A DNA stretch of 64,000 nt from Dehalococcoidia bacterium (lineage in GTDB: Bacteria; Chloroflexota; Dehalococcoidia; Bin125): NCBI GenBank assembly GCA_965232875.1, contig OZ247431.1, positions 2,744,376 through 2,808,375 on the forward strand, written 5' to 3'. A model generated the notes under the pieces. That model worked only from the letters and a program-made list of their open reading frames with translations, was not told where the DNA came from and made no database searches. Position numbers and translations under genes: made by a program. This document shows positions 11,359 through 55,300 of this stretch, piece by piece (position 1 is the stretch's first letter; each line of letters begins with the position of its first letter).

Positions 11359-11372
11359 GGTCGAACGTCCCA

Positions 11373-11393
11373 GTCCCCGCTTTACGCGGGGAC
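11373..11393 (+). terminator. GC-rich hairpin GTCCCCGC-ttta-GCGGGGAC after narK, followed by a pyrimidine-rich tract
   Basis: Read directly, 15 bp after the narK stop. The T-tract is weak (CTGCTCCTTCTCC). Confidence 0.4.
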
Positions 11394-11485
11394 CTGCTCC
11401 TTCTCCGCAAGGGACTACACCACCAGGTCGCACGTGTCGCCCGAGCAGGTCCCCGCGCAAAGGAGACCCTTGCAAAACTACGCTT

Positions 11486-11587
11486 TCCGTCATTGCCGCG
11501 CTCCGACGCGGCAATCTCGCAGCATTCAGCACAGACGTCTGTGCACGAATCAGCGAGATACCCGCGACAAGCGCGGGTATGACGGAG
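11486..11587. repeat. R2 two-hairpin repeat copy
   Basis: See 3672-3772; over 90% identity read directly. Confidence 0.8.
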
Positions 11588-11630
11588 TTGTTAGCGCGTG
11601 CTTGATTCATATCTGCCAGCGCTGGCGGAA

Positions 11631-14600: not shown

Positions 14601-14906
14601 TTCAATCGCGGCATGATCGAGCTGCTCGGCCGCTTCCGCGAACAGGCGCTGCTGAACTGGATCGGTCTCTGCTTCGCGACGCTGATCCAGACGCTCCAGG
14701 ACTCGGTCGAACAGGTCGGCAGCGGCCTTCTCCGTGAACGTGATCGCCGCAATCTCGTTAGCCGCGATGGCGCCGCTTGCGATCAGGTTGACGATCCGTC
14801 CAACCAGCGCCTCGGTCTTGCCAGTGCCCGCACCTGCCTCGACGAACAACGTCTCGTCAAGATTGTTCGCAATGCGATCACGATCCTGCTGGTCGGCGAG
14901 CGTCAT
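11631..14906 (-). CDS. addA: ATP-dependent helicase/nuclease subunit A (UvrD-like helicase plus C-terminal nuclease)
   Basis: Helicase motif I AGAGTGKTEALV, UvrD/PcrA-like core, 1091 aa. Overlaps the upstream addB-like gene by 4 bp. Confidence 0.85.
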   Translation of the reverse strand: MTLADQQDRDRIANNLDETLFVEAGAGTGKTEALVGRIVNLIASGAIAANEIAAITFTEKAAADLFDRVLERLDQRREAETDPVQQRLFAEAAEQLDHAAIETLHAFAGRILRMYPIEAGLPPGFQIVDESDALLRFAERWEEELDLLLEDDDLAEPLLAAFDAGLELKHLRDLAQALHTDWDRAAADAAELPPPKLSQTVAEISAPLREITALRHECSESEDKLAVNLEQIEQVLDRVRQSADADPSGEMLRQFLAGSEFKVGPGRGGSGKNWGGTERVKEIKDAIRLLADIPARLTAAALEPVLVPIHNELRRFVVEYSEERRRAGRLEFQDLLVRASGLLEQDESVAASLRDRFKRLLIDEFQDNDPLQTRIIDAIAQGEAGRVFYVGDPKQSIYRFRRADIQQFNQVKRQQAQGLTRLSQNFRSTPGVTEFVNAVFQPLMLDGGEGQAEWDDLNAHREAMEGVEHAVTVVGEEYEGPISATRRAEADTLVRMIADVTASHTQVFDKGEGRCRDAHFADIAVLVPTRTGLTHLLPALEERDIPYRLESRSLVYHTREIRDLLNLLRAIDDQTDQIALVAALKSPAFACPDDALYRWRQSRGQWDYRQPAPAAIPTDDPVADSLAWLRDAAARRWEMTVSELVGHTIRDRRLMELAVIERQPREHWARYRFLHDQARAFCDRGGSTLSEFLAWAQHQAEADTRVIESVVPEEDHDAVRIMTIHAAKGLEFPIVVFTGLNSAPRNDAPTLLWDIGGRPEIQFRKGLATPGFAHLWERERKLQEDEYVRRNYVGATRARDHLILSLYRGTGKSDGKLIDAVLETAIVPYRRLTKEIPNPPIVERVTEPDNGSGSSADRETWIERREELIKRMTSLPRESATGVAKRAAGYASEPPERGADRNFEPDDDLPPWRRGRAGTAIGRATHGALQVVDLKHPDDNEIRNAARAQAAAESLGTQASAEVERLTVWAASSDTVREAVSEDRYWRELYAAVEIDGVLLDGFVDLLYELPNGNLVVVDYKTDALREGEALDAAVSRYRLQAASYALMLEESLQRTVERCVLLFLHPQVAREISDLRGALGEVRSLLKSEH

Positions 14907-34353: not shown

Positions 34354-35562
34354 CTAGCTCACCAACTGCAGCTTCGACTTTAGGTACTCCATCCCGCGGT
34401 TGCCCTTGATGCTGTTGCAGTGGCCGCAGAGGAGCTGGAGGTTCTGGATGTGGTCGGTACCGCCTTTGGACTGGGCGATGATGTGGTCGACTGTCAGGTG
34501 CTGGGGCTGGAAGTGTGTGCCGCAGCCGGCGCAGTCGCCGCCTTGCTGACCGTAGAGCTGCTGCTTGTTGGCGGCCGAGTTGTAGGCAGGCAGCGGCCCG
34601 AGGTCGGTGCGCTGGGGGATGTCCTCGCGGTGCACGATGTTGCGCCACAGGCCCTGGTCGGCCTCGACGCGCTCGACGACCAACTCGGCCGCCTTCGCTG
34701 ACAGGTCGATGCCGACCCAATGCCTGTCGATGCGGTCGGCGGCGACCAGCGTCGTCGCACAGCCGCAGAACGGGTCCAGCACCATGTCGCCCTCGTTCGA
34801 TGAGGCCCTGATGATGCGGTCAAGTAGAGCAAGTGGTTTCTGTGTTGGGTAGCCGACGCGCTCTTTGGCAGAGGGCATGATCGGCTGCATGACCCACCAA
34901 TCCTCAGGGTGCTTGCCCCTCTGGTTCGGCCTATAACCGCTGTACACCTTGTTGGTTCGGTACGATTTGTCATATCGGCTCGGTAGTGAGTCTGTGACTG
35001 AGTCCGAATAGGGAATCCTCACGTCGTCAACGTTGAACGTCGGATCGCTGAGGGAGTATCGCAAGATGACATCGTGCTTCCGTGCGAAGTCGCGTCGCGG
35101 CACTCCGCCGCCTCGGTAAGCCCAGATGATCTCATTGCGGAATCTGCGCCGCCCAAAGATCGCGTCCATGAGTAGCTTGAGGTAGTGGCTCATCGTTGGG
35201 TCGCAGTGCAGGTAGATGGAACCTGTGGGCTTGAGCAGGCGGGGCATCTCCAACAGGCGGGCCGCCATGTAGGCCAGGTAGGACTTGTCTGAGTCGGTCA
35301 TCGCGGCCAGCAATACTCGATGCACGGTGGGGTGCTTCTGCTCGATCAGGTTGATCCACTCGGCGTCGACGTCGGAGAGCGACCAAGTGTCCTTGAACGC
35401 GGCGCCGGCGGCGGCCGAGCCGATCGGCGCGGCGTAGTTGGCGTTCGAGTTGAACGGCGGATCGAGGTAGATCAGGTCGACGGTCTCGGAGTTCATGCCT
35501 CGCATGATTTCGAGGCAATCGCCCGTCCAGACCGTGTCGGAGGCGAAGTTTGGTGTTGCCAT
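34354..35562 (-). CDS. DNA methyltransferase (N6_N4_Mtase, beta-class, DPPF motif IV then FxGxG motif I) fused to C-terminal HNH endonuclease; copy 1
   Basis: LIYLDPPFNSNANY (motif IV), VLDPFCGCATT (motif I), C-terminal CAGCGTHF...DHIIAQSKGG...NLQLLCGHCN (zinc-finger HNH). Central residues about 150-240 differ completely from paralog 2. Confidence 0.85.
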   Translation of the reverse strand: MATPNFASDTVWTGDCLEIMRGMNSETVDLIYLDPPFNSNANYAAPIGSAAAGAAFKDTWSLSDVDAEWINLIEQKHPTVHRVLLAAMTDSDKSYLAYMAARLLEMPRLLKPTGSIYLHCDPTMSHYLKLLMDAIFGRRRFRNEIIWAYRGGGVPRRDFARKHDVILRYSLSDPTFNVDDVRIPYSDSVTDSLPSRYDKSYRTNKVYSGYRPNQRGKHPEDWWVMQPIMPSAKERVGYPTQKPLALLDRIIRASSNEGDMVLDPFCGCATTLVAADRIDRHWVGIDLSAKAAELVVERVEADQGLWRNIVHREDIPQRTDLGPLPAYNSAANKQQLYGQQGGDCAGCGTHFQPQHLTVDHIIAQSKGGTDHIQNLQLLCGHCNSIKGNRGMEYLKSKLQLVS

Positions 35563-39103: not shown

Positions 39104-40492
39104 TTAGGCCGTTGCCAGTTGCAGTTTCGACTTCAGGTACTCCATCCCGCGATCACCCTTGATGCTGTTGCAATGACCGCAGAGGAGCTGGAGGTTCTCG
39201 ATGTGGTCGGTGCCGCCCTTTGATTGGGCGATGATGTGGTCGACTGTCAGGTGCTGGGGCTGGAAGTGCGTGCCGCAGCCGGCGCAGTCGCCGCCCTGCT
39301 GACCGTATAGCTGCTGCTTGTTGGCGGCCGAGTTGTAGGTAGGCAGCGGCCCCAAGTCGGTGCGCTGGGGGATGTCCTTGCGGTGCACGATGTTGCGCCA
39401 CAAGCCCTGGTCGGCCTCGACACGCTGGACGATTAGCTCGGCTGCCTTGGCCGACAGGTCGATGCCGACCCAGTCGCGCTGCAGGCGGTCGGCGGCGACC
39501 AGCGTCGTCGCGCAGCCGCAGAACGGGTCAAGCACCATATCACCCTCGTTCGATGATGCCTTGATGATCCGTTCAAGCAGTGCGAGCGGCTTCTGTGTCG
39601 GATAGCCCATCCGCTCCTTGGCCTGTGCGCTTACCGGGTTGATATCGGTAATCACGTCGCCAGCCGCTCGTCCTTGTTGTTCATCAAGGTAGCGCTTCAG
39701 TCTTGGCCGTCGGTCCGTAGATGCCGGATACCAGATGCGCCCTTCGTCGTGGAGGCGCTGCATCGTTTCCCGCTCATAGCGCCAGCCCTTCTCCGGGGGC
39801 GGGAAGCCGCGCCAGGTGTAGGTCATGTTTGGTCTTGGGTTGGGGCTGGTCATATTGTCCAGCATGTAACGCCTGCCAGACTCATCGCTGTGGCGATAGA
39901 ACCGATTCACGTACTCCTCGTCGTGAGGTTCCCACGCTCCGTTCCAGGTCGCCTCCGAACCGCGAACGTAGTACAGCAGCGTGTCGTGGATTCGGCCATA
40001 TCGTCTGGCGTCAGATCGACTGCTCGTCCGTTTCCAAGAGATCTCATTCTTGAAGTTCCGACGTCCGAACACAGCGTCCATGAGCAACTTGAGGTAGTGG
40101 CTCATCGTTGGGTCGCAATGCAGGTAGATCGAGCCGGTCGGCTTGAGCAGGCGGGGCATCTCCAACAGCCGCGCCGCCATGTAGGCCAAGTAGCTTTTGT
40201 CCGAGTCTGTTAACGCTGCCAACAGCACGCGATGCACGGCAGGGTGCTTCTGCTCGATCAGGTTGATCCACTCGGCGTCGACGTCGGAGAGCGACCAGGT
40301 GTCCTTGAACGCGGCGCCGGCGGCGGCCGAGCCGATCGGCGCGGCGTAGTTGGCGTTCGAGTTGAACGGCGGGTCGAGATAGATCAGGTCGACGGTCTCG
40401 GAGTTCATGCCTCGCATGATTTCGAGGCAGTCGCCCGTCCAGATCGTGCCGGTGGCGAAGTTCTGCGAACTGCTGTGGGGGTTGCTGGTCAC
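39104..40492 (-). CDS. DNA methyltransferase (N6_N4_Mtase) fused to C-terminal HNH endonuclease; copy 2 with a different, longer central segment
   Basis: The N-terminal about 150 aa and C-terminal about 160 aa are over 90% identical to copy 1 at protein and DNA level. The central segment of about 140 aa is unrelated. The start was set at GTG about 40492 (MTSNPHSSSQNFATGTIW...); the ORF-track ORF extends to 40729 through a non-coding R2 repeat. Confidence 0.8.
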   Translation of the reverse strand: MTSNPHSSSQNFATGTIWTGDCLEIMRGMNSETVDLIYLDPPFNSNANYAAPIGSAAAGAAFKDTWSLSDVDAEWINLIEQKHPAVHRVLLAALTDSDKSYLAYMAARLLEMPRLLKPTGSIYLHCDPTMSHYLKLLMDAVFGRRNFKNEISWKRTSSRSDARRYGRIHDTLLYYVRGSEATWNGAWEPHDEEYVNRFYRHSDESGRRYMLDNMTSPNPRPNMTYTWRGFPPPEKGWRYERETMQRLHDEGRIWYPASTDRRPRLKRYLDEQQGRAAGDVITDINPVSAQAKERMGYPTQKPLALLERIIKASSNEGDMVLDPFCGCATTLVAADRLQRDWVGIDLSAKAAELIVQRVEADQGLWRNIVHRKDIPQRTDLGPLPTYNSAANKQQLYGQQGGDCAGCGTHFQPQHLTVDHIIAQSKGGTDHIENLQLLCGHCNSIKGDRGMEYLKSKLQLATA

Positions 40493-40526
40493 TTGTCCGG
40501 TTCCTGTTAGTAGTCGTCGTCTCGTC

Positions 40527-40559
40527 GAGATACCCGCGGCAAGCGCGGGTATGACGGAG
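40527..40559. repeat. partial R2 element (second hairpin) just upstream of MTase-HNH copy 2
   Basis: GAGATACCCGCGGCAAGCGCGGGTATGACGGAG read directly. Confidence 0.7.
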
Positions 40560-40613
40560 CGTGGGAGGAAAACGACGAGAAGACAGACCTTCCTGCCGAA
40601 CCTCGCTTTGAGG

Positions 40614-41363
40614 CTAGCCAGCAGCATCCGGAGCGGCGTCAGCCACGGACTGATGCGGTGGATCGGCGATGCGGGGCGGGGCGACCATCTTCTGCGCGTC
40701 CAGCAGCTTCTTGATGACCTCGAAGTCATCTTCGGTCAACGGCTTGACCGAAGTAAGGGTGAACGAATTCCCGTCGTACAGCGCACCCGAGATTGGTGGG
40801 GCAATAGTCGTGTCCCTACCAATACTGTTTGGCTCCTGTTGGGGTGCCACCGTCTCTGCTTTCTCTTCGGGGCTCGGAGCGGAGCTTCTGTGAGCCATTC
40901 TTGACGCCATGAAGCGCTCCGTCTCAAGATATACACGAGCGCACTTGGGCGCAGAGCTCGCGGTGAAATTCTGGCGCACCAGCCAAGCCTCCAGGCTCTT
41001 AGGTTGGGGCGTCTTGGAACCAGCGAATTGCTTGCGAATCCTCTGGAACAACGGAGGCGAGTCCGCAGCGCGCACCAAAGCTTCCCATTGTTCCTCTCCC
41101 TCCGCGAGGAGTATGTCCTTGGCAAGGTCGCTCACCCGATACGATCCTTGGCTGGGTGTATCGATCAGTGCATACTGCCTCAAGGTGGAGATCCACGCTA
41201 GAGCTGCCCCACCTCGGGGCGAGTCGTAGCCTGCCGCAGCCGCCAGCGCTGGCGCGTCGATCTCGATAGAACTGTGAGACTGGAACACTTCGTTGATCTT
41301 CGCGATCGAAGCCTCGAGGCTATGACTCGGGTGCTTTGGGCTGCGCGGTCTCTTGCTTGGCAT
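40614..41363 (-). CDS. hypothetical protein immediately upstream of (same strand as) MTase-HNH copy 2
   Basis: 249 aa, Pro/Ala-rich low-complexity stretches, no recognised domain. May or may not be real. Confidence 0.35.
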   Translation of the reverse strand: MPSKRPRSPKHPSHSLEASIAKINEVFQSHSSIEIDAPALAAAAGYDSPRGGAALAWISTLRQYALIDTPSQGSYRVSDLAKDILLAEGEEQWEALVRAADSPPLFQRIRKQFAGSKTPQPKSLEAWLVRQNFTASSAPKCARVYLETERFMASRMAHRSSAPSPEEKAETVAPQQEPNSIGRDTTIAPPISGALYDGNSFTLTSVKPLTEDDFEVIKKLLDAQKMVAPPRIADPPHQSVADAAPDAAG

Positions 41364-41996: not shown

Positions 41997-42262
41997 GCGG
42001 CTACCGCGGGCCTGTACTCCTCACGCCAAACCATCTGCTGGATCGTTTCGACTGCGACGACGACGCGCCGGTGCTTACGATCTCGGGCGGTAGCGCGATT
42101 ACGGCCAGAAAGGCGGTTCGCTCCCGTTGTGCGGGTCGGCGCTCCGATGGTGGGGCGACGGTTCCTCAGTACAGATCGCCCGAAAGAAGCCGACTTTCCC
42201 TCCGCGTCGCTGCTACCTTGGGTGTCCTTGAACGCGATATCGGGTCCTTGGGTCTTGCTTGA
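41993..42262 (+). pseudogene. truncated GNAT-family (TacT-like) toxin gene; only about 30 N-terminal residues remain recognisable
   Basis: VLLTPNHLLDRFDCDDDAPVL resembles a TacT N-terminus (...H..s.FDCG...L). The remainder has no GNAT acetyl-CoA motif, and the ORF collides with the convergent CD-NTase gene. Confidence 0.4.
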
Positions 42263-43856
42263 ATCGCTTGATCTCTCCGAGATGGCAACGTTTGTACTTT
42301 CGTCCGCTGCCGCAAGCGCAGGGATCATTCCTCCTCAAACACTGCATGGCGATATCGGCAAGGGAAGACAGATACTGCTGGAAACCGAGCTCGCCATGGC
42401 CGTACTCGTCCCAGAGGTGCTGCCTGGCAGCCTGAATGCCGTATCGGTCGGTGTACCCCAATCGGTAGAAGAATGGGGTCACCATTTCATCCATAAACTC
42501 CCTGAGCGTCGTGCGACGGTCCGCCAACAGCTGAAGGCCCAGACAGCAAGAGCCGTCCCGATAGACGTGGAGATCGAAGCTGTCAATGCGTTCCCTTACA
42601 GCGATTCGCTCATGATCTCCGCCAACCTCGTAGACCTTCGGCCAACCATTCTGGTCAAAGGAGTCCAGGTCGATCCGGATCGAGAATGAGTCGCAGAGGA
42701 ACGTTTCCATTCTCTCGGTTGCATCGTCGCAGCCAATCAACAGCTTCCCTGCTTCCCCGTCGTACGCGGCACGCAACTCCAACTCACCTTCGATGAGCGC
42801 GGCCTCCGAGTCGCAACTGAGGCCGGGGAATTCCGAAGTCAACCACTCGAGCTCAACAGGGCTCAAGCTGAGCCGCCCTCGGGATGGAATGGCGCCCACA
42901 GCGGCATACGGCCTGCTCGGCGTGACTGTTCTCGGTGCCGTCTTCGCCACGGAGCGGTTTGCTGAGACAGCCACGCTGCCGAAGCCGTCCCCGAAGAGCG
43001 CCCGCCACTTTCTGACGCTCGACTGCTCGTCTTGGTCCTCGTATGCCTCCCTTACTCTCGTGGCATAGCTGGAGATCATGTCCCTGAAGCGGTCGTACTT
43101 GTCCTGATCCCAGTGCCGCGTGAAGGTCTCGCTTGGCAGAACGGGATTACGGATATCGGGCATGAATGGATGAGACTGGAGATATCTGTCGAGCCGTGTG
43201 ATCACGGTCAGCAGCGCATCGGGAATGGTCTTGAACTCTGTGTCGTCTTCCCAGTCGTAGACCGTGCTGCCAATCAGCATGGTGAGCAGGATCGACGGTG
43301 CCGTGAAGGTCTTCTTGTGGTCTCTCAGGTACTTCAGCAATCGCGTGACCAGCTTGAGATTGCCGTTGGTGATCCGGTTCTTCTGGTTGAACCAGTCGCG
43401 GTATCCGTTACCGTCCGTTGGCTCGAACCCGTTGGTCTTGCGGTTGCAGATGAAGTGGCTGCCGTTGAGGGTGATGCAGGGAACTAAGTCGATATTGAAA
43501 TCGTCCGCATAGTTGACGGTGATGCACCTAGTCTTCCTCTGAGCTTTGTCGGTATAGTTGCCGTTGTCCTTGAGACACTCGTACACGTCGTCGATGTAGT
43601 CCTTCGCTGACTTGGTTTCATCGAACTCCAAGTAAACGAGGCGGTCCACATCGAACTCGTCGCTGTCTTTGACCGGTCTGATCGTTGTGCGGAGGGCGTA
43701 TGAGCCTTGCCTCTCGGTCGTCTCGAACCCGACCAGATGCTGGGCCAGGTAATCGCTGACGGCCTTGTCGCTCCTCTTCAACCGCTCGTACCGAGTAGGG
43801 TTGAGATTCACGTGTCCGCTCATGAATTGACGGAAGTCGTCGACTCGCCTTGTCAT
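42213..43856 (-). CDS. CBASS cyclic oligonucleotide synthase (SMODS/CD-NTase-type nucleotidyltransferase) with about 250-aa unrecognised Cys-rich C-terminal extension ending in a SEC-C-like motif
   Basis: NTase signature GSYALRTTIRPVKDSDEFDVDRLV (GS...SDxDxxV) plus the downstream acidic residue in NYADDFNIDLVPC. 547 aa against a typical 300-400. C-terminal CACGSGRKYKRCH. 4-bp overlap with the patatin gene upstream. Confidence 0.7.
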   Translation of the reverse strand: MTRRVDDFRQFMSGHVNLNPTRYERLKRSDKAVSDYLAQHLVGFETTERQGSYALRTTIRPVKDSDEFDVDRLVYLEFDETKSAKDYIDDVYECLKDNGNYTDKAQRKTRCITVNYADDFNIDLVPCITLNGSHFICNRKTNGFEPTDGNGYRDWFNQKNRITNGNLKLVTRLLKYLRDHKKTFTAPSILLTMLIGSTVYDWEDDTEFKTIPDALLTVITRLDRYLQSHPFMPDIRNPVLPSETFTRHWDQDKYDRFRDMISSYATRVREAYEDQDEQSSVRKWRALFGDGFGSVAVSANRSVAKTAPRTVTPSRPYAAVGAIPSRGRLSLSPVELEWLTSEFPGLSCDSEAALIEGELELRAAYDGEAGKLLIGCDDATERMETFLCDSFSIRIDLDSFDQNGWPKVYEVGGDHERIAVRERIDSFDLHVYRDGSCCLGLQLLADRRTTLREFMDEMVTPFFYRLGYTDRYGIQAARQHLWDEYGHGELGFQQYLSSLADIAMQCLRRNDPCACGSGRKYKRCHLGEIKRFKQDPRTRYRVQGHPR

Positions 43857-44821
43857 TCGTTGTCCTCCAAACTGGTCAATATGGTCTCGCCGTACAGGCT
43901 GAAATCTCGGTTGGCTAGCGCTTTGAGGGTCTGCAGGTGCGTCGTGTCATCCAGCCTCCAGGACTGAATCTCTGGGTCGAGCCGTATGTGGCGATCGCCG
44001 AGCAGCAGCTTTGCCATGTTGGTTGACGCCTGAGACTGCAGGCCCAGCACGTAGCCGACCAGTTTTTCGCCGCCCCAGCCGGTCAGCAAGCCCCAGGATC
44101 TGCCCTCAGTGAAGAAACTGGCAGTGCGCCCGGTTCCGAGAGAAAGCACGCGTATCTGCCCGAGCGGTCGGCCGAATCTGGACAGCGCCTCCGTGACCGC
44201 AATGATCGTGGGGTTATTGGCCCAGAGTCCGCCATCTGCGAGGAGGTATTCGCCGACCTGCCTGGGGTCGAAGTATGCTGGCGCGGCGCAGGACGCCAAG
44301 ATTGCGTCTCTCAGTCGAACATCACCGTCCCGCAGGTAGGGACCGCCCAAGTCCTTCAGGTACCGAGACTTGAAGACATGCGCATTGCCGGTCGAAATGT
44401 CTGAGCTGGTGATCATCAGAGGGGTTGTGATTTCCCCCATGGTGACTGACGGCAGGTATTCGCCGATTGCATTGTGAAGGGGTTCAGTCGAATAGCGGCT
44501 GCGCAGAAAGGGAAAGCAGCTGAATCTCTTCGTCTTGAAAATGCGGTCGGCCTGACTCTCGAAGAGCTCGACGACAGTCCGCATCGGGATCTCTGTCGCT
44601 GCTGCGCCCGCCAATATCGATCCGGTGCTGGTTCCCGCGATAAGGTCGAAGCACTCACTCACGGGCGCCATGAGCGCGTCTTCCAGTTTCGCGAGTACGT
44701 GCGCGGCATACACCCCTCTGATGCCGCCCCCGTCTAACGCAAGAATGCTGAACGAGTCGTTGCGTCGCATCACGAGCCACTCGTTCTCCGATTCGCTGCC
44801 GGTAGCCGGCCGAGCATCCAC
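43853..44821 (-). CDS. capV: patatin-like phospholipase (CBASS effector CapV-like)
   Basis: LALDGGGIRG (oxyanion), GTSTGS (GxSxG nucleophile), DGG (catalytic Asp). Alternative starts GTG 44821 or ATG 44770. Confidence 0.85.
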   Translation of the reverse strand: MDARPATGSESENEWLVMRRNDSFSILALDGGGIRGVYAAHVLAKLEDALMAPVSECFDLIAGTSTGSILAGAAATEIPMRTVVELFESQADRIFKTKRFSCFPFLRSRYSTEPLHNAIGEYLPSVTMGEITTPLMITSSDISTGNAHVFKSRYLKDLGGPYLRDGDVRLRDAILASCAAPAYFDPRQVGEYLLADGGLWANNPTIIAVTEALSRFGRPLGQIRVLSLGTGRTASFFTEGRSWGLLTGWGGEKLVGYVLGLQSQASTNMAKLLLGDRHIRLDPEIQSWRLDDTTHLQTLKALANRDFSLYGETILTSLEDNE

Positions 44822-44908
44822 GAAGGATTTTCCTCTCGTCTACTCTGGGCAGATCGCGGCAAGAATCCGGTGATTCCGACATAATCCAGAAGATGGGCGG
44901 GCTCGATC

Positions 44909-44947
44909 GGTTTACACATGTTGAGAGTGTACCATGATTTGTAAACC
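44909..44947. promoter_or_regulatory. 8-bp inverted repeat GGTTTACA-N23-TGTAAACC in the capV / regulator divergent promoter, just upstream of the regulator RBS
   Basis: Read directly. A GGAGGAA RBS and the ATG at 44964 follow. Confidence 0.45.
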
Positions 44948-44963
44948 GAATGGAGGAACTCCA

Positions 44964-46016
44964 ATGTTCAGTGAACGTCTCAAGCTCGCCCGAAGACGCA
45001 GTGGCCTGTCGTTACGCGCACTGTCCTCGGTCGCAGGGGGCATCGTCTCGGCCCAAGCAATCGGCAAGTATGAGCGGGGAGAGATGATGCCGAGTTCGAC
45101 CGTGACGATCGCCCTCGCGGAAGCCCTCGACGTACCCGTGAGCTATCTCTTGAGTCCGACGAAAGTCTCTTTGAACTCGGTCGAGTTCAGAAGGCCGACC
45201 TCAATCAAGGTTCGGGAGAGCGCGTCAGTGGAGGCAGAGGTCCTCGATCAGGTGGATCGTTACTTGCAGGTCGAGGAGATCCTCGGGATTGACACCTCCC
45301 GGCACGACAACCCAGTTGGTGCTCCATTTCCGATCGCCTCCGTGGAAGAGGTGGAAGTGGCCGCCCAGCGTCTTCGCGACGCATGGAACCTTGGTGGCGG
45401 CCCGATCCCGGATATGCCTGAGCTGCTGGAGGAACGCGGCATTAAGGTGTTCAGGCTTGACCTGCCTGGATCGGTAGATGGCCTCAGTTGCCGAGTGCGT
45501 CAAGCGGACGGAGACGACATTCCTGCAGTGGTCTACTCGACGGGAACCTCCCTCGAACGAGAACGATTCACAATCGCGCACGAACTGGGTCACATGGTCA
45601 TGGATATCCCGTCCTCATTGGACAAGGAGCGAGCCTGTCAGCGCTTTGCCGGTGCGTTCATAGCGCCCGCAGAGGAGTTGGTTCGCGAGCTCGGACGCCA
45701 CCGGCACAACTTCGGATTCGCCGAGCTCATCGAGATCAAGCACATGTTCGGCATCAGCGCCGCCGCGCTCGTCATGCGGATGCGGGACCTGCGGATCATC
45801 ACGGACACCACCGTTAGCGCCATTTTCGACGGCATCGGAAGCAGTTGGAGAACAGATGAACCGGCGCCACTAAAGGAAGCCGAGAGCCATTCACGGTTCC
45901 GGCGCCTGTGTCTCAGAGCTCTTGCTGAGAATGAGATTTCTCAATCCAAGGCTTCGGAGCTGTTGAGGCTCAAAGTCAGCGAGATCGAGAAGATCATGGC
46001 TGGCTCGAACATCTAG
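44964..46016 (+). CDS. fused XRE-family HTH / ImmA-IrrE zinc metallopeptidase (CapH-CapP-like CBASS regulator)
   Basis: N-terminal HTH (RLKLARRRSGLSLRALSSVAGGIVSAQAIGKYERGE), HEXXH in FTIAHELGHMVMD. Divergent to the capV-NTase operon. The ORF track starts at 44934; the ATG with an RBS at 44964 is preferred. Confidence 0.8.
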   Translation: MFSERLKLARRRSGLSLRALSSVAGGIVSAQAIGKYERGEMMPSSTVTIALAEALDVPVSYLLSPTKVSLNSVEFRRPTSIKVRESASVEAEVLDQVDRYLQVEEILGIDTSRHDNPVGAPFPIASVEEVEVAAQRLRDAWNLGGGPIPDMPELLEERGIKVFRLDLPGSVDGLSCRVRQADGDDIPAVVYSTGTSLERERFTIAHELGHMVMDIPSSLDKERACQRFAGAFIAPAEELVRELGRHRHNFGFAELIEIKHMFGISAAALVMRMRDLRIITDTTVSAIFDGIGSSWRTDEPAPLKEAESHSRFRRLCLRALAENEISQSKASELLRLKVSEIEKIMAGSNI

Positions 46017-46024
46017 GCGAACCG

Positions 46025-46525
46025 ATGAAAGTCCTGGTCAGCGACAGTTCCATCTTGATTGAGTTCTCGAAGCGGGACATCTTGCACAAGATGTTCGAGC
46101 TGGAGTTTCAGTTTGCCGTGCCTGATCTGCTGTTCCACGAGGAACTGATTGACCTCGGTTCCTACAGCCGACAAGACCTGCTGGGTTTCGGACTGAGGGT
46201 GGAAGCGCTGGGTGCGGACGGCGTGGCGATGGCCGTTGGCTACCAAGCAGAACGAGCGGCACTCAGCCTGGTAGACGCATTTGCGCTCGCGCTTGCCGGA
46301 ACTCATGGATGGCGCATCCTGACCGAAGACAGGACCATGCGTCGCTTCGCAGAGACTAAGAGCATTGCGCACTTGGACGCGCTCTGGGTCTTCGACAGGA
46401 TGCTTGACACGAGTGTGCTATCTGGTCCTCAAGCCTTGGTTGTGTTGGAAGCGATGCTCAACGATCCAAGATGTCCTGTGCCCAACCCTGAACTAGCCAG
46501 CCGCATTGAGACTCTTCGAGATTGA
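46025..46525 (+). CDS. PIN-like domain protein (DUF4411-like partner of ImmA/IrrE regulators)
   Basis: N-terminal MKVLVSDSSILIEF (PIN-like acidic residue in a beta-strand). 166 aa. 9 bp downstream of the regulator stop. The DUF4411 assignment is from memory of the family pattern, not an alignment. Confidence 0.45.
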   Translation: MKVLVSDSSILIEFSKRDILHKMFELEFQFAVPDLLFHEELIDLGSYSRQDLLGFGLRVEALGADGVAMAVGYQAERAALSLVDAFALALAGTHGWRILTEDRTMRRFAETKSIAHLDALWVFDRMLDTSVLSGPQALVVLEAMLNDPRCPVPNPELASRIETLRD

Positions 46526-46945
46526 GTTGCTAGAGCGCGATCGAAGCGCGCAAGAGGATGTTGCGAAATAATCTCCGAGCCGTTGCCCCTAACGCGGAAG
46601 ATGACCGAGGAGCCATTTGGTTGGAATCAGGCTGCTTTACAGGGCATCGCTCGCTCGCGGGTTGCTCGCCACATCGCTTGCGCCGCTCAACACACCTCCC
46701 CACCAAACTGGACAAAATCAAGAACCTTCGAGATTCGATTCGCGCTGGAACGTTGATTCGCTGCCGACGTCAGGTCCCCAGATTCGTCCGGATCAGGCTC
46801 CGGTGCTCCTGGCACACGATTACGCAGCGTCGCAATACCGCCATTTGGGCGACCCAAGAGCGCAAGGCCCTGAGTGCTTCTTCGAAGTCTCGATTTAGCC
46901 TTTCAAGAGGTTCTCGTCCGAAGAACATCGAAGAAGAGGCGCCGG

Positions 46946-49240
46946 ATGAAAATAGAGCGGATTGACAAACTCCACGGGTGCGGAGTGTTTCGAGACTTCA
47001 CATGGTCGGACGTTCCAGACCTGCAAGAGTTCGGCCGATTCAACCTCATCTACGGATGGAATGGTTCTGGCAAGACCACCCTCAGCCGCATCCTCCGGAG
47101 CCTGGAACTGCGGAGAAGGCCTCAAGGCGAGGACGTCGCGCTGCGCGTCACTGGGCGCAGGATCGAAGGCTCGGAATTCGGCGAAGTCCAGCCGGAGACA
47201 ATTGCCTTGAAGGTCTTCAATCAAGACTTCGTCAAAGACAACGTCTTTCGTCCTGACGACGATGGTATGACCCCCATTGTGGTGCTGGGCAAAAGGAGCA
47301 TTGAGGCACAGCAGAAGATTGACCAGCTCAAAGCAGAGCTCGAGACATTGAATCAGGAACTGGCCGCCTCCGAAAGGAAAGAACGCGACTTCCTGCGTGA
47401 CCTGGACAATCACTCCAAGACAAATGCGCGCACATTGAAGGATCTGCTCGGCAACCAACCGAAGAGCGCTTACCGGAACTACAACCGGGGCCATTACGAG
47501 ACGCGCGCCGACACAATGATCGCCGCTGGTGCTCCTGAGATTCTTCGACTCAGCGACGAGGAACGCATCGCGCTCGTTCAACGCCAGGCTGAGACACAGA
47601 GGGACACAGTCTCCCTGCCTGACTTCGACCCAGTCGATCTTGCTGAATCGGAAACAGAGGCCTCCGTCCTTCTGGCGACGACCGTAACGTCGACAGCACT
47701 AGATTCACTCGCTCGCGATCCGGCCCTCGCTGAATGGATACGCGACGGTCTTCACATCCACGCCGATCGATCTGCCGGCGAATGCTTGTATTGCAGCCGC
47801 CCCATGCCAAATGAGCGCTTAGAGACTCTGCGAGACTACTTCGATGGCGCTCACGGAAAACTCATGAGGGACATCGAGTCCGCAATCTCGAAGTGTCAGG
47901 CCGAAGCCGAAAGGATGAGGGCGCTTCGCTCTGCACTGCCAATTGCCGACCAGCTCTATGCCGATCTGTCAGAGCCTTTTGAGGAAGCAAAGGAGCGACT
48001 ATATGCGGAAACGGATCAGGCTGACTCCTTCTTGCACCGGCTGACCGATGATCTGGGCAGCAAGAAGGAGCGGGCGTTCGAGTCGCTCAGTTTGGGATAT
48101 CAGGCACCCTCGAGTGGTGTCGACAGTTTTGCGTCGGTTGCAGGGATCATCGAAAAACACAACGAGGTGTGCGCCGAGTTCCAAGCCAGCGTCGAGCGGG
48201 CACGGGAGTCAATTGAATCGGATTTCATTGCCGAACGTCTTGACGCCTACAAGAGCCTCAAGTTTGGACTCAAGACGACTCAAGTCACCCAAGAACGGGT
48301 CAATCGACGAGTGAGAGAGATCCGAGAGGAAATCGCTCGGCTCGAATCCGACATCTTGGACCATCGCCCTCCCGCAGACGACTTGAATGCTGATTTACGC
48401 AACTACCTGGGTCCTGGAGCGATGCAACTGGCTGTCAATGAACACGGGTACACGCTCATGCGCGACGGCTGGCCGGCGGAAAACCCGAGCGAAGGGGAGA
48501 TGACCGCCATTGCGCTCTTGTATTTTCTCAGATCGTTGAATAGCCATGGATTTGACCTCAAGCAGGGGGGCGTCGTTCTCGATGACCCAGTGTCGAGTCT
48601 CGACGAAAACGCGCTCTTCACCGCGGCTTCTTACATACGTCGGAGGACTCAGGGCGCCGGGCAACTCATCATTTTGACGCACAACTTCGCCTTCTTTCGT
48701 GAGATGCGGAACTGGCTCAGGAATGTCAAAGAACCACGCAAGAAGGGCCCAGCGAAGCGGCCGGCGCGGTTCTACATGTTGAGGTGCAGCGTCATTGACG
48801 GAAAGAGGGCTGCTGTGTTGCGGCCGTTAGACCGGTTGCTAGCGCAATACGAATCCGACTATCACTATCTCTTCAGCCGCATCTATCGCGCGGCGAACAC
48901 TCCCAGCAATATTCTAGAAGACAACTACGCTCTACCGAACATGGCGCGTAGGATGCTCGAGGCGTTTCTGGCATTCAAGCACCCGCAGTCGGACAGCCTG
49001 TGGAACAAAGTCAACAGGTTGAGTTTCGACGAAGTCAAGAAAACGCAGGTGTTGCGCTTTCTGAATGTCTATTCCCACGACGAGACGATTGGAACCCCGC
49101 AGCATGATCCCACCCTGTTGGCGGAGTCAAACACAGTATTGGGGAATCTTCTGGAGCTTATCCAAGCTGTAGACCGCGAACACTACGACGCGATGATCAC
49201 ATTAATCGAGCAAGCAGGCGCAGGAGATGTCGACAGTTGA
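46946..49240 (+). CDS. AAA_13-family ATPase (PrrC/RloC-like, Rad50-like coiled-coil insert with CxxC hook)
   Basis: MKIERIDKLHGCGVFRDFTW...FNLIYGWNGSGKTTLSRIL (AAA_13 N-terminal hallmark plus Walker A), CLYCSRPM (CxxC), Walker B-like VVLDDPVSSLDE, C-terminal LPNMARRMLEAFLAFKHPQ. The start was moved to the ATG with RBS at 46946. Confidence 0.7.
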   Translation: MKIERIDKLHGCGVFRDFTWSDVPDLQEFGRFNLIYGWNGSGKTTLSRILRSLELRRRPQGEDVALRVTGRRIEGSEFGEVQPETIALKVFNQDFVKDNVFRPDDDGMTPIVVLGKRSIEAQQKIDQLKAELETLNQELAASERKERDFLRDLDNHSKTNARTLKDLLGNQPKSAYRNYNRGHYETRADTMIAAGAPEILRLSDEERIALVQRQAETQRDTVSLPDFDPVDLAESETEASVLLATTVTSTALDSLARDPALAEWIRDGLHIHADRSAGECLYCSRPMPNERLETLRDYFDGAHGKLMRDIESAISKCQAEAERMRALRSALPIADQLYADLSEPFEEAKERLYAETDQADSFLHRLTDDLGSKKERAFESLSLGYQAPSSGVDSFASVAGIIEKHNEVCAEFQASVERARESIESDFIAERLDAYKSLKFGLKTTQVTQERVNRRVREIREEIARLESDILDHRPPADDLNADLRNYLGPGAMQLAVNEHGYTLMRDGWPAENPSEGEMTAIALLYFLRSLNSHGFDLKQGGVVLDDPVSSLDENALFTAASYIRRRTQGAGQLIILTHNFAFFREMRNWLRNVKEPRKKGPAKRPARFYMLRCSVIDGKRAAVLRPLDRLLAQYESDYHYLFSRIYRAANTPSNILEDNYALPNMARRMLEAFLAFKHPQSDSLWNKVNRLSFDEVKKTQVLRFLNVYSHDETIGTPQHDPTLLAESNTVLGNLLELIQAVDREHYDAMITLIEQAGAGDVDS

Positions 49241-49274: not shown

Positions 49275-51125
49275 TCAATGCCAGTCGTGGGCGTCGGGCA
49301 GGGGGATATCGGCGCCGACGGCTTCGATGCGTTCGGCGGCGAGGTTGGTAGTACCGTCCCAGCGGTTGATCCGGCCGCTGATGATGATCAGCGGATTTGA
49401 GAGGGCTCGGCGGCACTGGGCAAAGACCTGGGGGCGGATGATCGCCTGGACATCGCCGGTCTCGTCTTCGATGGTGACGAAGACGATGCCGTCCGCGCCT
49501 TGGGGGTGCTGTCGAGCGATCACCCAGCCGGCGACGTGGATGCGCTCGCCGTCCCCGGCTTGGTAAGTATCGGACGTCGTGAGCACATCGGGGTCCAGCG
49601 TCGGACGGATGAACTCCATCACGTGGCCACGGGGGTAGATGTCCAGCGCCTGGTACTCGCCGACCATCTTGTCGTAGTCGCTGAGGTCGTCGAATCTGGG
49701 CGGCGGCTCCGCTCCGATCACGGGGAAGGCGCGTTGACCGTTGCGCGCGGACGGAATCGAGAGACCGGCTTCCCAGAGCGCCTCGCGTCGGTTGGGTGTG
49801 AGCGCTTCGAACGCGCCCGCCTCGATCAGCGAGCGCACGGCCCGCGGCTTGAGTCCGGTGCGGCGCACGAGCTCGCCCGCGTCGGCGTAGGGGCCGTGGC
49901 GCTCGCGCTCTGTCACGATCAGCTTGGCCGACTCTGCGCCGATGTCCTTGATCATGCCCAGTCCGAGCCGCACTGCGCCGTCCTCAGGCTGCGCCCGCAC
50001 GTCGCTGCGGTTGACGCAGGGATTGAGGAAGGGGACGCCGAAGCGGCGGGCGTCCTCTTTCAGCGTCTCGACGGGATAGAAGCCCATCGGCTGTTGGTTG
50101 ACCAGCGAGACGAAGAACTCCAGCGGGTAGCGGCGCTTGAGCCAGGCGGCCTGATAGGCGGTGATTGCAAACGCGTGCGAGTGCGACTCGGGGAACATGT
50201 AGTGACCGTTGATCTTGGCGAAGATGCGCTCTGCCGCGTCCGTCGGGACGCCGTTCGTTTGCGCCCCTTCGAGGAATCGCTGGCGGTGCATCGCGAGCGG
50301 ATGCTCATTGTTCTGCCGCGCGAAGGCGCGGCGCACCTCGTCGGCTTCGGCCGCGGTCATCCCGGCCACATCCATGATCAGCTGCACGACCTGCTCCTGC
50401 CAGACGATGATCCCGTAGCCCCGCTCCAACGCGCGCCGCTCCAGCGGATGGTCGTAGTCCCACTCGGCCCCGTGTCGGTAGCGCTCGACGAACTGCGAGA
50501 CGGCGCTGCCCTGCGTGCCGACGCCGGGTCGGATCAGCGCCACCTGGTAGGCGAGGTCGCGCAGGTTGCGCGAGCGGAGCCGCTGGCCCATCTTCAGTTG
50601 GGCCGGCGACTGGAGCAGAAAGACGCCTTTCGACTGGCCCGCGTTGATCAGGTCGTAGACGCCGTCGTCCTCGGGGTCGATCCGGCTGAGATCGGGCCGC
50701 TGTCCCGTGCGCCGCTCGATCAGCTCCAGCGCCTCCTCAAGCTGGTCCAGGACCGGTAGGGACAAGAGGTCGATCTTGGCGAAGTTGGCGTCGGCGACGC
50801 TGTCCTTGTTCCAGTCCATGATCTAGCGGCCGTCCATCGCGGCGGCGCGGATGGGAACCAGTTCGGGGATCGGCGTGTCCGAGAGGATCATCCCGCCGAC
50901 GTGCTGGCCGAGTCCGCGCGGCGCGTTCATCAAGTCGGGCGCCAGCGCGATCAGGTCGCGCCAACCGTGCGCCCCGACCTTGTCGCGGAAGTCGGGCAGG
51001 AAGCGCTCGAGCGTCAGGTTCCACTTGAGCGGATCGATGTGGCTGATGCCGATCAGGTAGCCGACCAGCAGCGCCACCGAGGACCCACGCTCAGCCGAGC
51101 AGCCAGGGGCAGATGATCGACGACC
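49275..51125 (-). pseudogene. dnaE2: decayed dnaE2-type (error-prone) DNA polymerase III alpha gene: C-terminal about 515 aa intact, upstream part frameshifted, internally deleted and 5'-truncated
   Basis: ORF 49275-50819 carries DnaE finger/thumb/OB regions (KIDLLSL, GYGIIVWQEQV, ...). The adjacent ORF 50823-51350, in another frame, carries LLVGYLIGISHIDPLKWNL..ERFLPDF and then, after only about 30 aa, HVGGMILSD..PIPELVPI. These segments are about 200 aa apart in intact DnaE. No PHP domain is upstream. Confidence 0.7.
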
Positions 51126-52342: not shown

Positions 52343-55300
52343 ATGACGCTCCGTCTCTTCCTCTTTGCTGTAGTGGTCGGTCTCGCCACGGCGCTAGGCG
52401 TCTTGGGCGGCTTCGCGCACAAGATCGAAAGCAGGGTGACTCTTGGGCCCAATCGCAGTGAGACCTTGTCGCAACCCCACCAACCTGCCTGGCATGCCGA
52501 CGCCAGCACCTGGACTGGTGCCAAGCGCTTACTCAATCCAAATGTCATAGAGGGTAGGTCAACCACAATCTGTACCGAAGACGCGACTTTGGTCGGCGCT
52601 CTCAATACCGCCGCACAACGTTGGAAAGACGCCCTCAAACAATCGTACATCCTCCTCGCAGTGGTGGACGATGGATCCGATGGCCCTCTCACGCCATGCA
52701 CATCAAGCGTGGACTTCGACGTGTTGCTCCGTCGTGCGGATGACTCCGACATGGATTGCATAGAGGCTCCCGCGTGCTACGTGTATATTCCCAAGAAGAG
52801 CAAACATCGACGGCTCTTCTCGCACGAAGGCAGCAGCGAATATTCGCTGCTCCTATGGCGGCGTGCCGACGCATCGGTTTCGACGATGGTGCACGAACTG
52901 GGCCATGTGCTCGGACTTGACGACTATGCAGAGTCCGACAAGGTGGAAACGAACAATTGCGACCACTTTCGTGATGTAGCTGTCGATTCGCTTGGAGATC
53001 ACTTTTCGGTGATGACCTACAGCGGAGACACACCGGAGTGCCGCACCCATGGCGTGATCACGGGCCGTGACCTTCGGGACTTCTATGAGGCCTACCATGT
53101 TGGGCCCTTGACTGGGGTGAAGATGAAGGGAGCGGTGACGGTGACATCGAGCAAACGTGTCAACGCCACCTTCTATTGGGGCGAGACGGGCGCACTGGAA
53201 CTCAGTCACAATGCGAAGTACGTTTTGGCTCAGCGCAAGCGCGGAGAGGGCTGGGATACTGTGGGGTCGGCCGAGGCATTCAAGAAAAATGGCGAACCAC
53301 GAGAGATGATTAGTATCATCCACTGCGATGGAATTGCGAGTCAGTATCGGTTGGTCGGCGCCTCGGCATTTCGTATGGGGCTGAAGAGGTTCGTAGACCA
53401 AGACTCGCTGGCGGCTCCGTTGGCCACGCTGGTCGAAGATCCACCATCAAGTTGCGGTACCAGCTTGGAGTCGGATGAGTCCAGTACCGGAGCGCAGGTG
53501 GCGATCGGTGACGCTTCCTTTGTCGTTGGCGTTGCTGCCTGGAACGGGAAGGATGACGGTGATGATTGGTGTACAGGCAAAGATAACTGCCCACTGGTGT
53601 TGAGCGCCAGCGTGACACGATCCTACTGCTACACAGGTGCGGTCAGGCCAAAGATCATTTTCACGCCGTCCGGTGGGGAGAGCGACAGCGACCCGTATAT
53701 TGCGATTACCGGCGGGCATGTGCCTCCTCCGACCCTGAAGGCTCCTCCTCCAGTACCGCAGTGCCATCTCACGGAGGGCACTGCGAGTTTCACAGTGACC
53801 GCTCGCTGGGGGCTCAAAGCGGACGATCCTTCACGTTCGATTGTCCTACCGGTGCGAGTGATTGCAAGACCTAAGCCTATAGGGGCGATCAACGAGAGTG
53901 GCGGAATCGGCGTTTCCGTATTGACAGTGCCTGCGCACGAGTCGCCGAGCGGTGAGGACGTACTGCTGAGGACGACTTACTGCCTAGCAGGTGAGGAGGT
54001 CAGAATCGTCAATAGCGAACACGCTATGTCGCTGTGGCTCGACGGTGATTTGCAAACGGGGACCTCCGTTGTCACTCAGTGCCCTGTCCAGGATGCGAGT
54101 CTGGACATTCTGTCGCTGAGACGCGATGGAGGCGGACGAGAGGTTCAAGTACCGAGCTTGGAACAGCTAGGTGCTCCCTTCCTCAATTCGTCAGTGACCT
54201 GCATGGCCGGCGGGATGACCACTGCGGTGTTCACCATCTCTGGGGGACAACCTCCCTATGGTGTAACACTTAGGGGCGGGCTGGCTGAAGTCGTTCGCTC
54301 CACCCAGAGAGATGGTCTCACTACTGTGCCAATCGAATGTCCACGACGCTCAGTGAGTGGCCAATCGCTATCCGTTCATGTAGTCGACAACGGCAGCCGA
54401 TCGGCAAGGGCTGATACTCAGCTGAGGGTGAGTTGCCCTGGAACGATTGGTATGCCCTCAACGCCTTCCGTGGAACCTGGGACGATAAAGTCCAGCAGTG
54501 TAGCTCTCTCTTGGACGGAGGTGCTGTGTGCTGAAGAGTACGAGGTGAGCTACGAGAAGGTCGGTGGAGACGGCCAGCTGATGACGAAAAGGACAGCGCA
54601 CTTGTCTGTCCCAGTGGACGGCTTGCTGGCGAACACGGCGTATCGGTTTGTTGTGCGAGCTCGCGTTGGCTCCAGTTGGAGCGCACCAAGTGCTGGCGTG
54701 AGCGTCCAGACGGCCCCTGCTGCGCCCAGCTTGAAAGTTGATTTTCGGAGCTGGGCGGGGGATGAAGGCGGCAGTTATAGGGTCGATGTGTCCTGGCCGC
54801 AGGTACCGGGAGCGACTTCGTACTCGGACGTGTCCGATGTGAGTCCCGGCGAGGTGAGTCCTGCACGCATCGGGGCATCGCAGGGGCCAAACTGCCGCAA
54901 AGGAGCGTCTGACGTCGAGTGGATATGCGAGAATCTCGCGCCGGACCAGATGTATGAGATTGCGGCGCGGGCGGTCAACAGCAATGGCGATGCGTCGGAC
55001 CCGGGCACGGTGGCATTCTGTCTCGGCCCGTGCGAAGTGCGGGTGAGCGAGATCTCGGCGAGCGGCGTTCGGGTGGATTGGGAAGGGCTGTTCGACCCGG
55101 CGTACTTCCAAGAGGTGCGGATTTTGGAGAACGGCGGCGCGGTCGCCAACCACGGGGGGCGGAGCATCGGGATCACGATTCCGAGTTCGAAGATCGATAA
55201 GGGCAAGGGGCTCAAGGCGGAGACCACGTACCGGGCCGAGGTGCGCACCTGGTACACGCCCAAATCGGGCTGGGGGGCGTGGGCGGGCGTCGAGTTCACG

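Follow-up and report, generated by a model that had tools for sequence, protein, structure and literature searches.

We analysed a 64,000-bp stretch of the genome of a Dehalococcoidia bacterium (phylum Chloroflexota; contig OZ247431.1, positions 2,744,376 to 2,808,375 of the forward strand), hereafter called the window. The analysis centred on a gene for a 350-aa protein that combines a helix-turn-helix (HTH) repressor module with an IrrE/ImmA-type peptidase, and which lies divergently to an operon of CBASS, the antiphage signalling system based on cyclic oligonucleotides. The region 44907-46525 is likely to constitute a self-contained, horizontally mobile two-gene cassette, comprised of (i) an inverted repeat (dyad) with a promoter, (ii) the HTH-peptidase gene (the regulator) and (iii) a gene encoding a PIN-like nuclease, which would operate by the mechanism described in the last section. 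This cassette is of the same kind as RmrA of RosmerTA, VapBC52 of M. tuberculosis and the CBASS-adjacent proteins known as CapH-CapP fusions. The features of the locus are as follows (positions in the window):

42213-43856, minus strand: CD-NTase carrying, as a fusion, an E2-like domain with a SEC-C motif; 4-nt overlap with capV
43853-44821, minus strand: capV, patatin-like CBASS phospholipase effector; divergent, its start codon and the left dyad arm being 85 nt apart
44907-44949: candidate operator dyad, TCGGTTTACACAT-N17-ATTTGTAAACCGA; left border of the two-gene cassette
44930-44935, plus strand: TACCAT, a putative -10 hexamer (TAnnAT) in the spacer of the dyad
44952-44957, plus strand: GGAGGA, ribosome-binding site, 6 nt before the ATG; GGAGG is conserved in the alignment
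44964-46016, plus strand: regulator gene, 350 aa; HTH, linker, M78 peptidase and helical C-terminus (RmrA type or CapH-CapP fusion type)
44964-45158, plus strand: HTH region, residues 1-65
45186-45191, plus strand: F75-R76, invariant, in the linker between HTH and peptidase
45579-45593, plus strand: HELGH, H206-H210
46025-46525, plus strand: PIN-like nuclease gene (COG2405/DUF3368), 166 aa, predicted toxin; 8 nt after the stop codon of the regulator

Borders of the cassette and the dyad

The window was compared with 80 species-level genome loci from Chloroflexota, Pseudomonadota, Nitrospirota, Thermodesulfobacteriota, Spirochaetota and other phyla, which carry relatives of the regulator at 45-96% identity. 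These loci are the best matches to the regulator and are phylogenetically related, and the counts given below do not represent independent events. Neighbouring genes in this high-G+C DNA were assigned by tblastn and profile matches instead of lists of open reading frames (ORFs), and the CBASS neighbours were found by clustering of neighbouring ORFs combined with profile searches.

Comparison of the window with the loci (blastn) revealed that the CBASS-linked relatives share a block of four genes (4.4 kb), extending from about 42105/42255 to 46500/46757; the CD-NTase, capV, regulator and PIN genes therefore move as one block among close relatives. The homology of four CBASS-free relatives (L004, L009, L010 and L011) is confined to the region from 44903/44909 to 46482/46529, with the left arm of the dyad as its exact starting point and the PIN stop codon as its end. 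Since the CBASS-free homology begins there, the dyad forms the left border of an autonomous two-gene cassette and is not a feature of the CBASS promoter. The cassette was also found on plasmids, as well as beside transposases, recombinases, restriction-modification genes and housekeeping genes.

We also observed that the cassette and CBASS decay independently. Locus L026, with a regulator 96% identical to that of the window, keeps its CBASS and has lost the PIN gene (7051-7300), while L003 (5077-5871) and L010 (4336-4524) have kept the pair, with capV present only as remnants.

The original prediction pointed to an 8-bp inverted repeat at 44909-44947 as a natural operator located between the two divergent promoters. 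This repeat is exact (GGTTTACA at 44909-44916 and TGTAAACC at 44940-44947) and constitutes the core of a longer dyad, whose 13-nt arms (TCGGTTTACACAT, 44907-44919, and ATTTGTAAACCGA, 44937-44949) are complementary at 12 of 13 positions and separated by a 17-nt spacer. The two copies at the dyad are the only exact copies of the 8-mer in the window. Equally good repeats arose in 6 of 2000 shuffles when the intergenic region was randomized, and 7 of 450 same-size tiles of the window contain one, so the dyad, judged from the window alone, is no more than modestly unusual. It gains significance because it is conserved across loci. The pattern GTTTAC-N11-29-GTAAAC, counted up to 120 nt upstream of the homologous gene, is present in 63 of the 80 loci (20 of the 23 with an upstream CBASS and 43 of the 57 without), compared with 2 background matches in the 976 kb of DNA elsewhere in these loci, and the right arm ends 11-25 nt before the ATG in every locus that has it. 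Most of the 17 negative loci contain a copy of the dyad with one base changed. The proposed operator role is thus credible, but the site belongs to the regulator/PIN cassette and not to the CBASS promoter.

A single clade (L058, L068, L073 and L074) retains no trace of the dyad within the approximately 100 nt checked upstream of the gene, and in these same loci the recognition helix (residues 29-34) has changed from AQAIG to AQSIG. This suggests covariation of operator and protein, although it represents a single evolutionary event. The centres of the half-sites lie about 31 bp apart (28-31 bp in relatives), i.e. three helical turns, which suggests either widely spaced HTHs on a dimer joined by the peptidase or C-terminal parts, or the binding of two dimers.

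The predicted promoter that the dyad overlaps is that of the regulator gene itself. The promoter scan proposed, on the plus strand, TTTACA-16-CATGAT, with the -35-like TTTACA (44911-44916) placed in the left arm. On grounds of conservation we prefer TACCAT to CATGAT as the -10 element, since TA(C/T)CAT is kept 4-5 nt before the right arm in most relatives. TTTACA is a poor partner for it because the distance of 13 nt is too short; the -35 element is probably TCGGTT/TTGGTT, which in the window (TCGGTT, 44907-44912) also lies in the left arm, at a spacing of 17 nt from TACCAT. Transcription is predicted to start within the right arm. Within the 142-nt region separating capV and the regulator gene, the dyad is positioned 14-56 nt from the ATG of the regulator, versus at least 85 nt from the capV start codon. 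Because it brackets the -10-like TACCAT just upstream of the regulator gene, the dyad is best read as being, first of all, an autoregulatory operator of the regulator/PIN cassette.

It is highly improbable that the dyad is merely a promoter sequence combined with a chance or structural palindrome that no protein recognizes. Such an explanation could draw on the -35-like hexamer in the left arm and on the equally good repeats found in 1.6% of the same-size tiles of the window. It does not account for the right arm, which has no promoter role and yet is conserved as well as the left, nor for the complementarity of the arms, which is preserved from phylum to phylum around a spacer of variable sequence whose length differs by 3 nt. 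The frequency of the pattern upstream of the regulator, set against its scarcity in the background, also contradicts it.

The HTH-peptidase protein and its PIN-like partner

The reading frame of the regulator is open from 44934 to 46016. The ATG at 44964 was taken as the start codon because it is preceded, at a distance of 6 nt, by GGAGGA and yields a product of 350 aa. Directly before this codon there is a small hairpin, TGGAG-GAA-CTCCA (44951-44963), which contains the ribosome-binding site, is partly conserved in relatives and was scored as terminator-like on the minus strand.

Pfam searches identified an XRE-type HTH domain (HTH_3, residues 6-62, E 9.7e-13) and an IrrE/ImmA-type peptidase (Peptidase_M78, residues 156-273, E 1.1e-10), which confirms that both modules are carried by one chain. 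The best match in PADLOC is RmrA (PDLC03949, E 2.6e-53), which covers residues 3-348, i.e. the full length, and 13 further RmrA profiles also match (14 in all). The PADLOC capP profile matches the peptidase core alone (residues 150-276, E 1.7e-12), the capH match is marginal (E 1.3e-3), and the closest NCBIfam model is the "spr1629 family repressor/antitoxin". The family is large and uniform in length: there are 2203 matches at E<=1e-10, the top 120 of which are all 347-354 aa long, and the 788 clusters (50% identity) obtained at E<=1e-30 are nearly all composed of proteins of about 350 aa.

An alignment of 48 regulator sequences (46-80% identity) showed that F75, R76, H206, E207, H210 and E222 are among the invariant residues. 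C225, placed 15 residues past H210, is invariant in relatives of at least 69% identity and replaced by Ala at 46-51% identity; it is a possible cysteine switch.

The AlphaFold model (mean pLDDT 75.8), built from a shallower alignment restricted to relatives of at least 69% identity, begins with a five-helix HTH (residues 1-63); next come a short strand, whose last residue is F75, and a long helix, and then the peptidase and a helical C-terminal region. Residues 281-345, which follow the peptidase, are all helical in the model (about 75 helical residues), and no GAF domain was found in the protein, either by the Pfam search or in this C-terminal region. The top Foldseek matches were, for the peptidase part, IrrE (3dti), PprI with single-stranded DNA (8sln) and PrpR of M. 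tuberculosis (6cyy), and, for the HTH part, P22 c2 and controller proteins of restriction-modification systems; further PDB matches of the HTH part include ImmR. Searching the PDB by sequence with the family profile gave the following matches:

4o8b, BswR: HTH region, E 5.5e-07
3lfp, C.Csp231I: HTH region, E 3.9e-06
9vzy (9vzy_A), 393-aa chain described as "HTH cro/C1-type": peptidase only, E 1.5e-5
3dte, IrrE: peptidase region, E 4e-05
7t5t, CapP: peptidase only, E 0.046

As judged by its chain length and the position of its HEXXH motif, 9vzy is probably VapB52 of M. tuberculosis. It was reached by the family profile alone; the single regulator sequence did not match it in the PDB.

The original prediction overlooked the PIN gene located 8 nt downstream, with which the regulator forms a toxin-antitoxin-like pair. 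Given the 8-nt gap, the two genes are predicted to be co-transcribed. The 166-aa product contains a PIN domain (E 2e-5), and a homologue with 84% identity carries PF11848 (DUF3368/COG2405). A PIN homologue lies directly 3′ of the regulator in about 69 of the 80 loci, with a gap of mostly 3-13 nt, and the pairing spans many phyla, down to 45% identity. Acidic residues are strongly conserved in 54 PIN homologues (E40, 98%; D84, 100%; D102, 98%; D124, 94%), and D7, part of a conserved VSDSS N-terminus, is present in all of the PIN N-termini listed. The PIN gene is intact in at least 51 of the 80 loci; about 15 have a version disrupted by a frameshift, stop codon or truncation, and about 10 have none, whereas the regulator is intact in 79. 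This is the pattern expected of a toxin and its antitoxin, but it is partly an ascertainment effect, since a locus was included on the basis of a full-length match to its regulator.

Association with CBASS operons

The operon divergent to the cassette was classified, from the genes that it contains, as a Type II-short CBASS. CapV scores 237 bits against the NCBIfam model CBASS_lipase ("CBASS cGAMP-activated phospholipase"; cutoff, 200), and its orientation, divergent to the regulator gene, is as the original prediction described. In the CD-NTase, PADLOC E2 models match residues 337-534 and the SEC-C zinc motif occupies residues 509-526. The E2 component of Type II-short CBASS is usually encoded by a separate gene. 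The CD-NTase-E2 fusion is conserved in relatives, including the 547-aa proteins of L081-L086. These are contigs of sponge-associated or marine Chloroflexi (relevant region, about 10200-17050) with a regulator of 92% identity; they contain, downstream, two more CBASS-like operons (QueC/TGT/SMODS/Cap17-like and bacHORMA/AAA/Cap17-like/exonuclease), and their downstream flank differs from that of the window.

A CBASS was found directly upstream of the regulator, on the opposite strand, in 23 of the 80 loci, and downstream in 2. The upstream operons are of several types: (i) CD-NTase-E2 and CapV, as in the window (L001, L002, L007, L008, L014-L016 and L026), (ii) a TGT/cyclase/Cap17-like arrangement, i.e. 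Type IV (L017, L018, L020, L022, L023, L025 and L029) and (iii) other CD-NTase/CapV combinations, with 21-39% identity and other gene orders (L028, L060, L061/62, L076 and L078). The pair also occurs on plasmids, annotated as an "XRE family transcriptional regulator" of about 355 aa and a "hypothetical protein" of about 166 aa. In Rhizobium and Agrobacterium the plasmid pair is divergent to nucleotidyltransferase and SLATT genes (CD-NTase+SLATT), and in Neotabrizicola to a multi-ubiquitin/E2/E1 (ThiF) "6e" operon; the neighbour on a Bradyrhizobium plasmid may, tentatively and from sparse annotation, be a Type III CBASS. The association of the cassette with CBASS is thus real, and the 23 relatives place the N-terminal HTH in a clade that does occur beside CBASS, contrary to one of the refuting conditions named in the original prediction.

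The remaining 57 loci have no CBASS upstream. Their neighbours are heterogeneous, many of them co-directional or housekeeping genes, and include KdpD, a sulfatase, a phosphoglycerate-mutase domain protein, transporters, transposases, a serine recombinase, restriction-modification genes and LmuA. Since this is so, the cassette needs no divergent defence operon. The idea that it always regulates such an operon was rejected: among 20 divergent upstream genes compared with PADLOC, only LmuA, a PRTase, PDC-M51B and weak E1-like matches were found, and a bulk scan of 99 neighbours gave a heterogeneous set with housekeeping genes among them.

These observations bear on two further explanations. According to the first, which we judge decidedly unlikely, the protein is a dedicated CBASS regulator that, like CapH/CapP, represses the divergent capV/CD-NTase promoter through the dyad, with the PIN gene as an accessory or a passenger. 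The constant upstream, opposite-strand geometry, shared with CapH/CapP and maintained with several unrelated CBASS types and the "6e" ubiquitin-like operon, speaks for it, as do the transfer of the four genes as one block among close relatives, the retention of regulator and CBASS in L026, where the PIN gene is missing, and the CapH-CapP fusions that Lau et al. (2022) list beside Type II-short phospholipase CBASS. Against it stand the 57 loci that lack an upstream CBASS, 43 of which retain the dyad and many of which have a co-directional or housekeeping gene instead. Moreover, the homology of the CBASS-free relatives has its boundary at the dyad, the dyad is closer to the regulator ATG than to capV, the PIN partner is kept in most loci, and on the capV side neither a promoter-like site nor a conserved element emerged from the promoter scan and the intergenic alignment.

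The second explanation, a pure toxin-antitoxin or abortive-infection module with no regulatory tie to CBASS, in which adjacency reflects defence-island clustering, is in our opinion unlikely. It agrees with the autonomy of the cassette, which has its own operator and borders, with its presence on plasmids and near transposases, recombinases, restriction-modification genes and housekeeping genes, with the frequent disruption or loss of the PIN gene beside an intact partner, as for a toxin (an asymmetry due in part to the way the loci were picked), and with published RmrA-type pairs, which are stand-alone defence systems. Random clustering, however, predicts CBASS on either side and in either orientation, whereas 23 are upstream and divergent here against 2 downstream, and this bias involves several unrelated CBASS types and gene orders. 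In addition, the intergenic gaps are short, so that in some loci the promoters must be near the dyad or overlap it.

We therefore return to the autonomous cassette, which may in addition act on the operon next to it. Because the pair sits back-to-back with several CBASS types, in the 23 loci as well as on plasmids, control of the CBASS operon by the cassette is plausible. In the alignment of the CBASS-linked relatives the dyad, the -10-like element and the ribosome-binding site alone are conserved; because nothing else in the intergenic region is conserved, CBASS control, if any, would have to act through the same dyad.

Several other genes of the window were noted. Since the gene located just downstream of the PIN gene (46874-49240, plus strand) encodes a 788-aa AAA_13 ATPase matching over its full length the PADLOC candidate defence family PDC-S06 (E 1.1e-227), the region is a defence island. 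On the other side, the products of two minus-strand genes (34354-35562 and 39104-40729; 402 and 541 aa) join N6/N4 DNA methylase domains to a C-terminal HNH endonuclease. Further downstream there are (i) a 514-aa ORF (49275-50819, minus strand), possibly a split or truncated dnaE, in which DNA polymerase III alpha is represented only by its C-terminal parts (finger, HHH and OB), the PHP domain and polymerase core being absent, and (ii) a 2470-aa ORF (52343-59755, plus strand), which contains multiple repeats of fibronectin type III and probably encodes a large surface protein.

Related systems, proposed mechanism and significance

CapH and CapP are encoded upstream of, and opposite to, the CBASS operon that they regulate (Lau et al. 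2022, bioRxiv 10.1101/2022.04.27.489752). The 350-aa protein resembles them in combining an XRE HTH repressor module with an IrrE-type HEXXH peptidase module and in the placement of its gene upstream of and divergent to a Type II-short phospholipase CBASS. By its position, C225 (Ala in distant relatives) may correspond to the cysteine-switch loop present, according to the CapH/CapP literature, in a third of CapP proteins. It differs in being one chain instead of two proteins, in having a conserved PIN partner gene, in its weak PADLOC capP and capH matches next to those of RmrA, and in lacking the C-terminal GAF domain that in CapP follows the peptidase and HTH. The CapH-CapP-like identity originally assigned to it thus holds with regard to both module types, but the protein belongs to an RmrA-type family.

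Nor is the single-chain form new: Lau et al. (2022; 10.1101/2022.04.27.489752) catalogued 15 CBASS systems with a CapH-CapP fusion, including, in their Table S1, examples from Micromonospora, Frankia and Mycobacterium in which the CBASS is of the Type II-short phospholipase kind. These actinobacterial fusions, listed by IMG accession numbers only, may belong to the same subfamily as the 350-aa protein. The same authors described a DISARM operon with a vapC-like gene adjoining the fusion protein, which recalls the PIN gene of the cassette.

VapB52 of M. tuberculosis, comprised of an HTH, a CapP-like peptidase and a C-terminal domain, is the antitoxin of the PIN toxin VapC52; it cleaves itself, under stimulation by single-stranded DNA, at a conserved FR motif, F75/R76 (NAR 2026, PMC13273310). 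The 350-aa protein shares with it the domain order, the pairing with a PIN protein, the FR motif with identical residue numbers, and the type of N-terminal HTH (VapB52 is structurally close to C.Csp231I and BswR, which are also the best PDB matches here). The differences are that VapB52, provided that it corresponds to 9vzy, is only distantly matched by the family profile (over the peptidase domain), that the toxin of the cassette is of the COG2405/DUF3368 PIN-like group, and that VapBC52 is not described beside CBASS.

RmrA-type Zn-peptidase antitoxins pair with diverse toxins (Millman et al. 2022; Ernits et al. 2023, PMC10440598), and PIN-like partners have been reported for the RmrA antitoxin node (Ernits et al. 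2023, PMC10440598). Similarity to RosmerTA consists of the full-length matches to the 14 RmrA profiles and of an antitoxin gene placed directly upstream of a variable, here putative, toxin gene; the downstream PIN protein, however, matches no PADLOC RmrT model. The exact gene pair, an HTH-DUF955 (COG2856) fusion followed by a COG2405/DUF3368 PIN gene, was predicted to be a three-component toxin-antitoxin class by Matelska et al. (2017, PMC5499597), who gave an example from Geobacillus. Their study was purely computational, and the operator, the cleavage site and the link with CBASS are not described there (PMC5499597). A further parallel is provided by two-protein systems that have no toxin partner and control element excision or a repair regulon, unlike the cassette, although IrrE and PprI are the best structural matches of its peptidase part. 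In these systems, ImmR/ImmA (ICEBs1 and phage phi105) and DdrO/IrrE (Deinococcus), the HTH repressor is inactivated by an M78 peptidase after DNA damage.

Based on these similarities, we propose the following mechanism. The HTH would bind the GGTTTACA and TGTAAACC half-sites, which bracket the putative -10 element and the start of its own operon, and so keep expression low, as suggested by their conservation and position. By analogy with VapB52 and RmrA, the remainder of the protein would hold the PIN nuclease inactive. Single-stranded DNA arising from phage attack or DNA damage may then activate the peptidase, which would cut its own chain at F75-R76, in cis or between protomers. Self-cleavage, suggested in the original prediction, is plausible because the invariant F75-R76 matches the F-R sites at which CapH (between F82 and R83; Calloji et al. 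2026, bioRxiv 10.64898/2026.05.16.725639) and VapB52 are cut. Cleavage would both lift promoter repression and free the toxin. Where the cassette is docked to CBASS, as here and in about 30% of the related species, it probably also gates CBASS expression; this is the least supported step.

Several points weigh against this interpretation, apart from the non-independence of the loci. DNA binding, self-cleavage, PIN toxicity and its neutralisation are all inferred for the 350-aa protein and its partner. The distance of about 31 bp between half-sites is long for a simple HTH dimer. The analogy with VapB52 is distant, and the match to 9vzy, confined to the peptidase domain, is weak. The AlphaFold model is of moderate quality, particularly in the linker (pLDDT 66-68 at residues 61-90). 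The PIN protein, besides its lack of an RmrT match in PADLOC, gave nothing meaningful in a sequence search of the PDB. With respect to CBASS control in particular, the promoter scan found no sigma-70-like site for capV on the minus strand, and no second conserved element was found in the intergenic alignment of the CBASS-linked relatives.

A regulator of this kind beside CBASS has already been described, and the locus extends a catalogued class by a Chloroflexota (Dehalococcoidia-like) example. It also ties together three literatures in which one kind of protein bears different names, namely CapH-CapP fusion, RmrA antitoxin and VapB52-type antitoxin, and it provides the subfamily with a precise, conserved candidate operator, GGTTTACA-N~23-TGTAAACC, placed around a putative TAnnAT -10 element, and with an invariant F-R site. 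In this subfamily, the fusion regulators that adjoin CBASS are nearly always accompanied by a PIN toxin gene, which raises the idea that the induction of CBASS is coupled to toxin release. As a tentative extension, possible though on the doubtful side, a single self-cleavage at F75-R76 might both free the PIN toxin and derepress whichever operon is docked to the cassette (CBASS I-IV or "6e"), making it a portable two-output DNA-damage switch. If this were true, CBASS would have recruited toxin-antitoxin modules as sensors in the form of its CapH-CapP fusion regulators, with the PIN partner serving CBASS as an integral second effector or as a fail-safe.

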